DNA of 64,000 nt from Rubrivivax sp. (GTDB lineage: Bacteria > Pseudomonadota > Gammaproteobacteria > Burkholderiales > Burkholderiaceae_C): positions 43 through 64,042 of the forward strand of contig JAIYDH010000385.1 of the NCBI GenBank assembly GCA_027487585.1. The letters are read 5' to 3'. A program made the translations under genes and the position numbers. The notes beneath the pieces were generated by a model. That model saw only the letters and a list, made by a program, of their open reading frames with translations. It did no database searches and had not been told where the DNA came from. This document shows, in pieces, positions 16,288 to 40,030 of this stretch (positions are counted from its first letter, which is position 1; every line of letters starts with the position of its first letter).

Positions 16288-16923
16288 TCAGCGGTCGCCC
16301 TGCAGCGCCTTGGCGCCCATCGCATCGGCCTCAGCCTCCAGGCTGTGGTCGTCATTGACGTCGACGCCGGCCATCTGCATCGTCGGCTGCACCCGCCCCT
16401 GACGCTGCTGCACCACGTGCCAGGCTTCATGCGGCAGATGCTGCTCCTGCCCTGGCGCCACATGGATGTCGTTGCCCTGCGCATAGGCGTGTGCGCCCAG
16501 CTGCGCCGGTTGGCTGGAATTGGCATGCACGCGCACGTCCGACAGGTCCATGCCGGACAGCGCCTCCACACCGCTCTTCAGCGCGTCGGGCATGCCAGTC
16601 TTGTTGGCCGGTGACGCGGCGGGCTCGAACCGGCCCTGCAAGGGTTCCTCCTCTTCCACACGCTGCGCGACAAAACGGCCTTGCAGCGGCTCTTCCTCTT
16701 CCATGCCCATGCGCTGTGCAGTGAGATCAGCCTTCATCTGCAACTCTTCTTCTTCACCGGCCAGTTGCGCAGGCGCTGCGCCGAAGGCCGCTTGAATGCG
16801 CTCCAGCTGAGCAGCCTCGCGCTGGTTGCCGGCAGCGCCGGCTGCGGCAGGCGTGCGGGCTTCACGCTGCGCTGCGGGCCGCACCCTTTGCGGGGGAGGA
16901 ATGAGGTCGCTTCTGGTCTTCAT
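16288..16923 (-). CDS. Stand-alone DUF4157 (eCIS core domain) protein
   Basis: 'NKTGMPDALKSGVEALSGMDLSDVRVH.NS..PAQLGAHAYAQGNDIHVAPGQEQHLPHEAWHVVQQRQGRV...VNDD.SLEAEADAMG'. Start ATG 16923. Confidence 0.9.
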   Translation of the reverse strand: MKTRSDLIPPPQRVRPAAQREARTPAAAGAAGNQREAAQLERIQAAFGAAPAQLAGEEEELQMKADLTAQRMGMEEEEPLQGRFVAQRVEEEEPLQGRFEPAASPANKTGMPDALKSGVEALSGMDLSDVRVHANSSQPAQLGAHAYAQGNDIHVAPGQEQHLPHEAWHVVQQRQGRVQPTMQMAGVDVNDDHSLEAEADAMGAKALQGDR

Positions 16924-16961
16924 CAGGCTCTCCAATCTATTGGGGAACGGTCGCGTGGTCT

Positions 16962-38657: not shown

Positions 38658-39467
38658 TTAGCGATGCACATAGATCTCGGAGACCAGCGCGGGCACGCCG
38701 TGGATCGTCTCGCGGGCGAAATGGTCTGCGCCAGCCACCGGCAGGCGCTTGACCAGGACTCGTTCTGCAGCCGCGCTGCGGCTGCGCAACTGGAAGCGCT
38801 CGTCTGAGCGCTGGCGCAGTTCAATGCCGGACTCGGAACGGCTGGACAGCACCCATCGGCCGTCGACCAGCTGCTCCGGTTGTGGATCAGTGAAGCGGAT
38901 CTGCTGTGTCGGGTCAACCACTTGCAGCGGGTCCTCAGACCAATCGCCCAACAGCCAGTAGCGCCACACCGTGGCACGGGCTGCCAGCTGCGCGCGGTAG
39001 TGCACGGGTCTTTCAGGCACCGGCAGGTCCAACAACATCAGCGGCATGTGACGGCGGTTGGACACGCGCAAGTGCTTGGTGACGCTGGGCCAGGTTGCCG
39101 GCCAGTGATCGGCTGGCCCGGCAACGGGTCCTGCATGCAGGCGCAAGGGGTCATCCGCAGCACTGCCCGGGCGCAGCACCAGCAGTTCCCCGGGCGCCGT
39201 GGCTAGCCCTTCGGTGCAGGCATGCAGCCCGGTGTCTTGGCTGCGCACACACCAGGCCAAGCTGACACTGGCATCCAGTGCGGCGCCACCGGGCGCAGCC
39301 ACGAGGAACCCTGAACCAGTCTGGCGGGTGACGCAGTCATGGGCGCGCAGCCACTCCACCGTGTCGGCGCTGGGCTCAAAGCTCAAGCCCTGGGCCAAGC
39401 CGTCGGCGAAGTAGGCGTGGCCCACAGTCACTTCCAGGAACGGCGTCCAGCGCGTGGCACGGTTCAC
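38658..39467 (-). CDS. Conserved eCIS hypothetical protein (candidate cap adaptor)
   Basis: GTG start overlapping the DUF4255 stop (GTGA); 'FLEVTVGHAYFADG...F.PS..T', 'F.ARATVWRYW', 'LVKRLP'. Confidence 0.65.
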   Translation of the reverse strand: MNRATRWTPFLEVTVGHAYFADGLAQGLSFEPSADTVEWLRAHDCVTRQTGSGFLVAAPGGAALDASVSLAWCVRSQDTGLHACTEGLATAPGELLVLRPGSAADDPLRLHAGPVAGPADHWPATWPSVTKHLRVSNRRHMPLMLLDLPVPERPVHYRAQLAARATVWRYWLLGDWSEDPLQVVDPTQQIRFTDPQPEQLVDGRWVLSSRSESGIELRQRSDERFQLRSRSAAAERVLVKRLPVAGADHFARETIHGVPALVSEIYVHR

Positions 39468-40030
39468 CGCACACCCACTTCCGGCTGCGCCACGCGCGGA
39501 ATCTGCGCCATGAGCTGGTTGGCATCGATGTTGACCATGCGCATGCGGTACAGCACCGAGGGCAGGTACTTCCCGCTGAGCATGCCCCACAGGTTGCTCA
39601 AGTCACTGACGCTCAGGTTCTCGATCTCCAGCGTCAGCTTGTCGATGCGCCTGTCCAGTTCGGGCGTGTTCTGGTGGTTGAACAGCGGCCTTCCCTGGAA
39701 GAACGCCACCGTACTTGACAGGAACTTCAGCGCTTCGGGGTAATTGCTGCCGCTGAAGTTGGCCGCAAACATGACCATCATGTTCAGGTGAACAGGTGCA
39801 GTCTTCTGAAGGTAGCGCTGCGACACGCTGCCGCCACTGGCGCCGACGGGAACAGACTCGCGTTCGATGTTGACCAGGAACACGGCGAGCTTGTTGGTCA
39901 CCTGGGTGGCTACGCTGCCATCCTGTTCATGCAGGTTGCACACAACCACCAGGTCTTCAGCCACGAGGAACTGGCGCTTCAGCGCCTGGTTCAACTGGCT
40001 GGCCACTTGGGTGATGGCAGCGTCGATCAT
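39464..40030 (-). CDS. DUF4255 / Pvc16-like cap (tail terminator) protein
   Basis: 'MIDAA...LNQ.LK...NKLAVFLVNIERE...PVHLN..VMFAANF...NYPEALKFLS..V.FFQ..P.F...LSNLWGML.GKYLPSVLYRMR'. Confidence 0.9.
   Translation of the reverse strand: MIDAAITQVASQLNQALKRQFLVAEDLVVVCNLHEQDGSVATQVTNKLAVFLVNIERESVPVGASGGSVSQRYLQKTAPVHLNMMVMFAANFSGSNYPEALKFLSSTVAFFQGRPLFNHQNTPELDRRIDKLTLEIENLSVSDLSNLWGMLSGKYLPSVLYRMRMVNIDANQLMAQIPRVAQPEVGVR

Follow-up and report, generated by a model that had tools for sequence, protein, structure and literature searches.

Does a run of contractile-tail genes in an environmental betaproteobacterium, a Rubrivivax sp., represent a new kind of extracellular contractile injection system (eCIS) or an already described machine, and does that machine leave the cell that makes it? 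An initial sequence-only reading of the window (the whole stretch of DNA that was analysed, 64,000 nucleotides of contig JAIYDH010000385.1) had listed 17 genes between positions 16288 and 40030, and all 17 are present there, on the minus strand, co-directional and in the order given. Those limits hold every listed gene, but the system runs past them on both sides: the functional island extends over ~12.5-45.7 kb and is made up of the operon, a kinase/LuxR regulator pair and four proteins that lack DUF4157. Judged from its genes, the locus is very probably a complete and apparently intact clade Ib contractile injection system (CIS) of the type of SalCIS, from Salmonella enterica subsp. salamae (Ejaz et al., Nat Commun 2026, PMC13266070; PDB 9r9h, 9r9n, 9rce, 9r9a).

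Gene content and resemblance to SalCIS

The eight core components defined by Chen et al. 2019 (Afp1/5, Afp2-4, Afp7, Afp8, Afp9, Afp11, Afp15 and Afp16) were all detected with Pfam and are contiguous and co-directional. Four listed genes (38658-39467, 27601-28443, 25157-27604 and 16962-19619) had no Pfam match and were identified by other comparisons; searches of Pfam at relaxed thresholds and of NCBIfam gave no useful match for their products (the cap adaptor, Cis13, Cis12 and the membrane protein) or for the four cargo proteins described below. Starts and stops overlap by 4 nt at seven gene junctions, GC3 is 0.78-0.89 across all listed genes, and the starts of the gp25, Cis7 and regulator genes were refined to 32734, 35635 and 40912, respectively. 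No sigma-70-like promoter site was found at either border, and terminator-like matches at both did not exceed the shuffle level, both scans being uninformative in DNA of 68% GC.

The features in this section all lie on the minus strand. First in the unit is a short cytoplasmic histidine kinase (40909..41628; Pfam HisKA_3 and HATPase_c) in which no hydrophobic segment was found, and its stop is overlapped via ATGA by a NarL/LuxR-type response regulator (40157..40912; Pfam Response_reg 1.9e-27 and GerE 1.1e-16). Regulator homologues with 50-62% identity lie upstream of the cap gene in six related loci, and a kinase homologue together with a regulator does so in loci L004, L015, L020 and L057; GerE regulators have been reported as eCIS-associated (PMC8213781). 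The first structural gene, likewise in SalCIS, encodes the single-domain cap or tail terminator Cis16a (39464..40030; 188 aa; Pvc16_N/DUF4255 2.8e-32). Its stop is overlapped via GTGA by a gene for 269 aa (38658..39467) that had been correctly placed and called hypothetical; a profile of 16 homologues compared with PDB now gives it an identity as the cap adaptor Cis16b (SalCis16b 6.1e-26 over the full length, AlgoCIS cap adaptor Alg16B 1.5e-9, tCIS All3326 2.3e-9). The one sheath gene of the locus encodes Cis2 (36924..38627; 567 aa; Phage_sheath_1C 9.6e-8; PDB SalCis2 1.1e-184), whose bit scores in PDB descend from SalCis2 (618) through Alg2 (348), tCIS (302) and Pvc/Afp (137-180) to pyocin/T4 (~27-31). 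The inner tube Cis1 (36408..36869; Phage_T4_gp19 7.5e-49), 65-88% identical in relatives, and the tube-initiator Cis5 (35894..36403; Phage_T4_gp19 9.7e-37) follow.

Between Cis5 and Cis7 sits the 57-aa putative plug Cis6 (35637..35810; DUF5908 1.1e-10). It had no match in a single-sequence PDB search, and we found no mention of DUF5908 in the CIS literature searched; its make-up of an N-terminal strand, a loop and a C-terminal helix fits Alg6 as described in PMC8894135. Cis7 itself (34877..35635; CIS_tube ~1.5e-42 to 2.2e-42) joins a tube-like domain to a LysM-like C-terminus, so the earlier label "LysM" was right about the gene, but LysM falls below Pfam significance and only Phage_tail_X (0.043) is matched. 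The VgrG-like spike Cis8 (33080..34873; Phage_base_V 4e-19, Phage_GPD 2.1e-11) and the PAAR tip Cis10 (32737..33036; PAAR_motif 1.1e-25) precede the gp25-like baseplate wedge Cis9 (32276..32734; GPW_gp25 4.9e-24), whose start was placed at a GTG 2 nt past the PAAR stop.

The long baseplate/cage protein Cis11 (28440..32279; 1279 aa; Baseplate_J) matches SalCis11 (3.9e-104), tCIS All3317 (1.8e-73) and Alg11 (9.7e-54) in PDB, and the N-terminal part also aligns: residues 29-412 with SalCis11 14-395, and 492-1263 with 556-1311. The ~79 aa between these two stretches contain nothing that aligns by sequence with helical domain IV of SalCis11 (419-549). Baseplate Cis12 (25157..27604; 815 aa) is closest to tCIS All3315 (2e-61), followed by Alg12 (4e-49) and SalCis12 (6.4e-46). 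Between these two genes lies a Cis13-type gene (27601..28443) for a short fibre-like, putative anchor protein of 280 aa, called from position and predicted fold. Its homologues occupy the same place in more than 50 of 80 related loci and form a family of 240-290 aa with the N-terminal motif RNRxTLKxxFxxGxxPTExxFxDLIDS. A single-sequence PDB search returned nothing, and the AF2 model (pLDDT 77.8) has as its best Foldseek matches trimeric fibres and T4 gp9 (E 3e-5 to 4e-3) at a TM of just 0.2-0.27. The proposed orthology to Cis13 should be read with some caution, because SalCis13 is absent from PDB and the assignment draws on position and this low-TM fibre-like fold.

The tape measure Cis14 (20943..25160; 1405 aa; CIS_TMP 7.4e-104) falls within the 645-1559 aa seen in relatives, and at 0.229 nm per residue, the coefficient taken from AlgoCIS, it predicts a particle of ~300-320 nm. 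The AAA+ ATPase Cis15 (19616..20959; AAA 8.4e-28), 52-81% identical in relatives, carries Walker A GPPGTGKT and Walker B FFDEAD and is the probable cargo loader. Its gene is overlapped via ATGA by that of an integral membrane protein (16962..19619), which the sequence-only reading had named as such and which proves to be a homologue of SalCis19 (preprint name) or SalCis20 (published name): PDB 9r9a_B is matched at 1.7e-5 by the single sequence and at 2.1e-52 by a profile (positions 428-866 against 414-859). In hydropathy its N-terminus is signal-like and three hydrophobic helices lie towards the C-terminus; the SalCIS protein is described with a signal sequence, a large periplasmic domain and three TM helices at its C-terminal end. 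By eye a GH18-like catalytic motif appears degenerate. The gene lies between the ATPase and DUF4157 genes in sampled relatives, and 10 of 16 genomes have a homologue, located 14-20 kb downstream of the sheath. Last comes a small DUF4157/eCIS_core protein (16288..16923; 211 aa; eCIS_core 1.2e-12) with an HEAWH motif (HExxH), an N-terminal leader and acidic repeats, without a toxin domain; in relatives the DUF4157 proteins are mostly longer (355-1085 aa), with one of 177 aa in a Nitrospira locus.

From the cap adaptor, membrane-protein and sheath matches, we therefore assign the locus to clade Ib of the 2019 classification (PMC6899500) and to its SalCIS-like cluster, which was solved structurally and reported in 2025/2026 (PMC13266070), the sheath contributing a ranking by bit-score similarity and not a tree with reference sequences. 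SalCIS shares with it the single sheath, cap and cap adaptor as first genes, a putative plug, a PAAR-tipped spike, a long cage-forming Cis11, Cis12, a gene putatively of Cis13 type, an integral membrane protein that combines a signal peptide with three TM helices, the AAA+ ATPase, a small HExxH/DUF4157 protein near that ATPase, and the lack of a T6SS membrane complex. The two differ in that the ATPase and the effectors/DUF4157 gene are reversed in SalCIS, whereas here they are co-directional with the structural genes, in the Cis11 helical extension, unrecognisable by sequence in our locus, and in length (~600 nm observed for SalCIS against ~300 nm predicted from our tape measure). Beyond SalCIS, the locus has four extra leader-tagged proteins without DUF4157, a dedicated kinase/regulator pair and an environmental Burkholderiales host. 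The SalCIS preprint and published paper disagree on which of two effectors is conserved.

Two further systems with solved parts resemble the locus less closely. AlgoCIS of Algoriphagus machipongonensis (PMC8894135) has the cap adaptor, plug, spike cage and single sheath; it belongs to clade Ib. The early remark that the gene order resembles Algoriphagus-type loci was sound. It differs in having been shown to be released, in its Ig-like tail fibre Alg19, in its length of ~120 nm with a 526-aa tape measure, in two cargos that both retain DUF4157, and in its sheath score (348 against 618 bits for SalCIS), and no membrane protein of the SalCis19/20 type has been described for it. The thylakoid-anchored tCIS of Anabaena (PDB 7b5h/7b5i) is similar in cap adaptor (2.3e-9), Cis11 (1.8e-73) and sheath (302 bits) and supplies the best Cis12 match (All3315, 2e-61); however, it is anchored in thylakoids, which our host lacks, via large extensions of Cis12 (1335 aa against 815 aa).

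Leader-bearing proteins and mode of delivery

A leader with the consensus [S/G]PRMxAQRxxIxxAFG is carried by the DUF4157 protein and by four further proteins that flank the operon and lack DUF4157, and in a whole-genome search it was confined to these five. Roseateles noduli and a Zetaproteobacterium have DUF4157 proteins that keep it. The four DUF4157-less proteins are probably cargo. On the minus strand, effA (12490..14733; 747 aa; leader SPRMVAQRRHMASAFG) has no family match, with Pfam silent even at relaxed thresholds, and effB (14770..16185; 471 aa; leader SPRAVAQRRQIDAAYG) bears a rare toxin-like C-terminal domain found in 14 representative clusters among 1.84 billion proteins. DUF4157 stands at the N-terminus in 3 of the 10 effB homologues scanned, and other organisms have fusion proteins in which DUF4157 precedes the effB toxin domain. 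An alignment-based AF2 model of effB is confident over residues 140-471; Foldseek gave it no significant fold match in PDB, which leaves a DarT-like identity unsupported. On the plus strand, divergent from the operon, lies effC (42355..44397; 680 aa; leader SPRMQAQRGALQAAFG), without a Pfam match at relaxed thresholds, followed by effD (44408..45688; 426 aa; leader GPRMLAQRKQIQKLFG), also without a Pfam match.

We infer from AlgoCIS, whose own leader has no sequence similarity to this one, that the leader may be a loading signal. In AlgoCIS, experiments showed that loading of DUF4157 cargo needs a disordered N-terminal sequence and the AAA+ protein Alg15, and that the tape measure acts as a ruler that sets length (bioRxiv 10.64898/2026.05.27.728243). 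By this analogy the particle would assemble in the cytoplasm on a plug/spike nucleus, its length would be fixed by the 1405-aa tape measure, and the ATPase would recognise the shared disordered leader and thread cargo into the tube lumen. Contraction of the sheath would then drive spike and cargo into the target, and the adjacent kinase/LuxR-type pair probably switches expression.

Where such a particle would act bears on its name. The sequence-only reading had excluded a T6SS on the grounds that TssJLM, ClpV and TssA are missing. These genes are indeed missing, with no canonical T6SS (i-iii) domains (TssB/TssC, TssJLM, ClpV) at the locus and no Tss genes in 12-46 kb, and a search of the whole 97.8%-complete genome found no VipB/TssC, an E. 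coli positive control having worked; but the inference is insufficient, because the membrane-anchored T6SSiv of Amoebophilus also falls in clade Ib, and T6SSiv-type systems of this clade lack those genes too. Since T6SSiv is membrane-anchored and SalCIS was not detectably released, the label "extracellular" is likewise unproven here. We tentatively lean, at a confidence a little short of even, towards a mode like that of SalCIS and T6SSiv, in which Cis13 and the membrane protein would dock the baseplate on the inner membrane of the producing cell, and the machine would fire outward on contact. SalCIS was seen at the inner membrane and was not detectably released under the conditions tested, the docking model being a hypothesis in that paper too (PMC13266070). 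The T6SSiv of Amoebophilus asiaticus and the Aureispira CIS, both of clade Ib and without TssJLM/ClpV, are likened to our locus by description, and PMC13266070 reports that their homologues of Cis13 and Cis12 resemble the SalCIS proteins; their membrane anchoring, however, was seen by cryo-ET, whereas for our locus it is a proposal.

The same machine could instead act as a free eCIS, with particles released by lysis of a subpopulation, Cis13 as a short tail fibre and the membrane protein only aiding envelope breach or release. This we regard as a real possibility, if on balance a doubtful one. AlgoCIS, also of clade Ib, is cytoplasmic, unanchored and present in supernatants (PMC8894135), the fold matches of Cis13 are fibre-like, and the peptidoglycan-hydrolase-like domain of the membrane protein could serve release (PMC13266070). 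However, domain searches recognised no holin, endolysin or spanin in 12-46 kb, the closest solved relative lay at the inner membrane, and Cis13, at only 280 aa, has no recognisable receptor-binding domain. A third use, firing inside the producer on stress as in Streptomyces CIS/CisA, for regulated cell death or abortive defence, is improbable. It would suit the dedicated membrane protein and has a precedent in CisA (PMC12237407), cells expressing SalCIS stopped dividing and showed a pinched inner membrane, and the SalCIS authors raise a "domesticated/defensive role" (PMC13266070); but a PAAR-tipped spike and a set of five cargo proteins that are diverse and vary rapidly are more in keeping with attack on other cells, and the Streptomyces CIS sheath is far more distant (~124 bits against our sheath).

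Taken together with the leader, the docked mode would give a Burkholderiales host without a T6SS an inner-membrane-docked contact weapon, functionally a T6SSiv, in which five proteins are loaded via one portable leader uncoupled from DUF4157. As a whole this proposal is rather unlikely, but if true, DUF4157 would be a stand-alone core part and not a toxin-linked domain, and the leader would be a minimal natural loading tag for clade Ib. The locus adds to the recently defined SalCIS-like branch a clean, compact and apparently intact member, from an environmental betaproteobacterium without a canonical T6SS. Its cargo set is unusually explicit, with five proteins sharing one leader, four of them without DUF4157, and a dedicated two-component switch stands beside it. 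It may offer a tractable system for release as against membrane docking, for the roles of the membrane protein and Cis13, and for the role of DUF4157 apart from toxins.

Related loci, host and origin of the island

The sequence-only reading had proposed a distinct eCIS subtype with a cap-first gene order. It rightly set the locus apart from Afp/PVC (clade Ia), which share the core (Afp1/5, 2-4, 7, 8, 9, 10, 11, 12, 14, 15 and 16) and have another gene order: our locus has one sheath gene and a 188-aa single-domain cap placed first, whereas Afp/PVC encode three sheaths, end with a gene 16 whose product has two domains (~295 aa), carry adenovirus-like Afp13 fibres and a short Afp11, lack the cap adaptor and the membrane protein, and reach a sheath similarity of only 137-180 bits. 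The further step to an unclassified subtype defined by that order fails, and we consider it very improbable. Beyond the difference from Afp/PVC, it can appeal to the SalCIS authors, who call these operons previously unannotated (PMC13266070), but all parts match solved clade Ib proteins, SalCIS best, and most of 80 named related loci, which come from Burkholderiales, Gammaproteobacteria, Bacteroidota, Nitrospira and other groups, keep the order cap-16b-sheath-tube-tube-(plug)-(Cis7)-Vgr-PAAR-Cis11-Cis13-Cis12. A related sheath occurs in at least 599 species genomes, and the order Cis12-TMP-AAA-Mem-DUF4157 is kept in four of five further-sampled genomes, the exception being the Nitrospira locus, where a small DUF4157 gene lies ahead of the ATPase. 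Cap-first order is thus the norm for clade Ib, as are the cap adaptor, plug, long Cis11, Cis13 and membrane protein, and the locus leaves CIS classification unchanged as a member of an already described class.

A defective prophage tail or R-type tailocin, the former already discounted in the sequence-only reading, has a negligible probability and is effectively refuted by sheath scores and phage-database comparison: the sheath, tube, gp25, baseplate J and tape measure do have homologues in phage tails, but the best phage sheath among 50,697 records aligns only over the C-terminal third, at 34% identity, and coverage stays below 80% in every record, the pyocin sheath scores 26.5 bits, capsid, portal, terminase, integrase, lysis and head/packaging genes are missing in 12-46 kb, and the Pvc16 cap, AAA+ ATPase, DUF4157, PAAR and CIS_TMP present are marks of eCIS-type loci.

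The betaproteobacterial host was also correctly read. The sheath falls among those of Roseateles and other Sphaerotilaceae, and a UvrD-like helicase with a housekeeping role shares 54% identity with that of Roseateles and 50-51% with those of other Burkholderiales, with only paralogue-level matches elsewhere. Related betaproteobacterial eCIS (Rhizobacter, Methylibium and Janthinobacterium) had already been catalogued and their toxins tested (PMC8213781). Three observations count for horizontal transfer, by which the island was probably acquired. A close sheath occurs in only 2 of 24 same-genus genomes, a tRNA-Pro and transposase fragments lie at the island border, and GC is 0.63-0.68 in the island against ~0.70 in the flanks.

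Class and distribution of the locus

Ranked by similarity against reference sheaths, the locus is a well-preserved clade Ib, SalCIS-like contractile injection system (CIS), a class already described. Its sheath matched SalCis2 at 1.1e-184 (618 bits) and scored 348 bits against Alg2 of AlgoCIS, 302 against tCIS, 137-180 against Pvc/Afp, ~124 against Streptomyces and 27-31 against pyocin/T4; Cis11 matched SalCis11 at 3.9e-104. Chen et al. (2019) took the possession of just one, notably long Afp11 as defining clade Ib and found homologues of Afp14, the tape measure, in lineage I only (PMC6899500), and the AlgoCIS paper adds a cap adaptor along with a plug and a spike cage (PMC8894135). 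Ejaz et al. solved SalCIS (bioRxiv 2025; Nat Commun 2026, PMC13266070) and delimit a SalCIS-like cluster by three marks: the membrane protein, SalCis13 and SalCis11 in extended form. The window clearly encodes a homologue of the membrane protein, whereas its Cis13 corresponds to SalCis13 by position and fold only, and in sequence alignment nothing in its Cis11 pairs with the helical segment specific to SalCis11.

Seventeen co-directional minus-strand genes lie within 16288-40030, each with a GC3 of 0.78-0.89, as in real genes of 65-72% GC DNA. Their identities, most of them from Pfam, bear out the inventory and order of the sequence-only reading: the cap (Pvc16_N/DUF4255, 2.8e-32) is transcribed first, followed by the adaptor, sheath, two tube proteins (gp19, 7.5e-49 and 9.7e-37), a 57-aa DUF5908 protein (1.1e-10), a CIS_tube protein (2.2e-42), VgrG (4e-19 and 2e-11), PAAR (1.1e-25), gp25 (4.9e-24), the 1279-aa Baseplate_J protein Cis11, Cis13, Cis12, a 1405-aa CIS_TMP tape measure (7.4e-104), an AAA ATPase (8.4e-28), the membrane protein and, last, an eCIS_core/DUF4157 protein (16288-16923, 1.2e-12). 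Also on the minus strand, upstream of the operon, Pfam identified a sensor-less HisKA_3 kinase of 239 aa and a NarL/LuxR regulator. Because of 4-nt start/stop overlaps at seven junctions (cap/adaptor, gp25/Cis11, Cis11/Cis13, Cis13/Cis12, Cis12/tape measure, ATPase/membrane protein and, read directly from the sequence, kinase/regulator), the operon and this gene pair appear to form a single translationally coupled unit. The two-component pair would control expression; several Burkholderiales relatives have it upstream of the cap as well, and an association of GerE regulators with eCIS is known (PMC8213781).

A database search gave more than 8000 protein matches to the sheath at 1e-20 or better, and at least 599 species-representative genomes contain a sheath relative. 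Among the close sheaths (60-86% identity) are proteins named for Leptothrix, Roseateles, Rubrivivax and Piscinibacter. The order cap-adaptor-sheath-tube-tube-(plug)-(Cis7)-Vgr-PAAR-Cis11-Cis13-Cis12 recurs in most of the best 80 related loci, whose hosts include Burkholderiales, Gammaproteobacteria, Bacteroidota, Nitrospira, Zetaproteobacteria, Desulfobacter and Fibrobacter; cap-first order is thus the rule of the clade and no novel arrangement. Further downstream, Cis12-tape measure-ATPase-membrane protein-DUF4157 was found in four of the five genomes sampled, and the fifth, a Nitrospira locus, has a small DUF4157 gene ahead of the ATPase. The distinct eCIS subtype proposed from sequence alone is rejected on the SalCIS-type matches of sheath and Cis11 and on the wide distribution of this gene order. 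The exclusion of a prophage in that reading was confirmed, and a tailocin was rejected likewise: the best phage sheath match spans the C-terminal third only (34% identity), none of 50,697 phage records gave a sheath match covering at least 80%, and the locus holds no head, packaging or lysis genes.

At eight related loci (L007, L035, L036, L041, L052, L068, L069 and L078) no further window protein turned up inside 10 kb to the left or right of the sheath relative; split loci, masked sequence or another arrangement could account for this.

Parts of the particle and mode of delivery

Homology yields the components of a clade Ib particle; four of the genes lack a Pfam match. The cap adaptor (Cis16b; 38658-39467, minus), encoded between cap and sheath, matched SalCis16b weakly as a single sequence (0.08); a profile built from 16 homologues at the equivalent position in related loci matched it over its full length at 6.1e-26, the AlgoCIS cap adaptor at 1.5e-9 and tCIS All3326 at 2.3e-9. 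Cis12 (25157-27604, minus) matched its tCIS, AlgoCIS and SalCIS counterparts at 2e-61 to 6e-46. Cis13 (27601-28443, minus; 280 aa) belongs to a family with a conserved N-terminal motif, always found between Cis11 and Cis12. Its AF2 model (pLDDT 77.8) retrieves trimeric fibres and T4 gp9 at good probability, yet TM scores reach only 0.2-0.27, so that the fibre label it had been given stands loosely.

The 885-aa membrane protein (16962-19619, minus), whose N-terminus is signal-like and whose C-terminal part has three hydrophobic helices, matched the SalCIS integral membrane protein (PDB 9r9a_B) at 1.7e-5 alone and 2.1e-52 as a profile. Of 16 genomes tested, 10 gave a detectable homologue, in each case 14-20 kb downstream of the sheath. 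By eye, its GH18-like catalytic stretch (~residues 530-545) reads FTGLTVFFDD (family consensus GDGITLxFD) against the canonical DGxDxDWE. The catalytic Glu thus appears to be replaced, which makes hydrolase activity doubtful. In Roseateles chitinivorans (L101, 8229-11657), homologues of the membrane protein and DUF4157 share one uninterrupted 1142-aa open frame, which could reflect a fusion or just the absence of a stop in high-GC sequence.

The tape measure would set a particle length of ~300-320 nm (1405 aa x 0.216-0.229 nm per residue). Tape measures of the window and the five genomes sampled downstream vary 2.4-fold (645, 954, 1402, 1405, 1537 and 1559 aa), implying very different particle lengths among close relatives.

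We tentatively favor membrane-docked, contact-dependent delivery, while holding it somewhat short of probable. The earlier argument that the system is not a T6SS since TssJLM, ClpV and TssA are missing is correct as to the genes but not as to the inference, because clade Ib includes the membrane-anchored T6SSiv type, which lacks them too. Release of SalCIS was not detected, and the particle lay at the inner membrane (PMC13266070). A freely released eCIS is a possible, if less likely, alternative, and intracellular or cell-death use, as in the Streptomyces CIS with its membrane protein CisA, seems improbable. TssC is absent from the genome, so the operon sheath is its only sheath of this kind; the locus offers a chance to compare released and docked delivery in a T6SS-less environmental bacterium.

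Leader-bearing probable cargo

Four probable cargo proteins, effA (12490-14733) and effB (14770-16185) on the minus strand and effC (42355-44397) and effD (44408-45688) on the plus strand, had no family match. All four carry the same N-terminal leader as the small DUF4157 protein, [S/G]PRMxAQRxxIxxAFG, found near the N-terminus of only these five proteins in a scan of the whole 4.4-Mb genome; in Roseateles noduli and a Zetaproteobacterium, too, the DUF4157 proteins start with this leader. AlgoCIS loading needs a disordered N-terminal sequence ahead of DUF4157, which is itself dispensable, and the AAA+ protein Alg15 (bioRxiv 10.64898/2026.05.27.728243). Cargo would here be loaded via leader and ATPase.

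The DUF4157 protein (16288-16923, minus) consists, in 211 aa, of the leader, acidic EEEEPLQGRF repeats, a HEAWH domain and a stop. In four of the genomes sampled downstream (L102-L105), its relatives are mostly 355-1085 aa long with C-terminal extensions (177 aa in the Nitrospira locus); the window's toxins are separate genes that retain only the leader. This split of leader and toxins from DUF4157 is among the features most worth pursuing.

The C-terminal toxin-like domain of effB (~residues 175-471) is very rare, with 14 representative clusters drawn from 1.84 billion proteins. In three of ten homologues scanned it stands behind DUF4157, which speaks for effB being genuine cargo. Invariant positions of the domain include S224, S225, D226, D237, R242, E265, R266, D269, R339, E385 and H467. 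The confident AF2 model (pLDDT ~85-95) gave no significant Foldseek match in the PDB, and the domain may be a toxin fold without an assigned family; a five-protein cargo set with unassigned folds is noteworthy.

Host and origin of the island

In a quick ML tree the window sheath pairs with that of an uncultured betaproteobacterium (SH-aLRT 99), and the pair joins two Roseateles sheaths (SH-aLRT 96); a housekeeping UvrD-like helicase agrees on a host in Burkholderiales. The left border (10059-12302) has the features typical of an insertion or rearrangement site, namely tRNA-Pro(TGG) (10059-10135, plus), a DDE_Tnp_1 transposase fragment (10574-11239, minus) and a truncated phosphofructokinase (11766-12302, minus; profile positions 48-133 of 277). 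Together with an island GC below that of the flanks and a close sheath in only 2 of 24 same-genus genomes, this border suggests horizontal acquisition. Between the kinase and effC, a 139-aa high-GC3 ORF (41789-42208, plus) without a Pfam match looks by eye like a piece of an IS5-family transposase (VQPKAVAHPTDSRLLNRVREQL); the divergent placement of effC and effD across from the operon may go back to an IS event.
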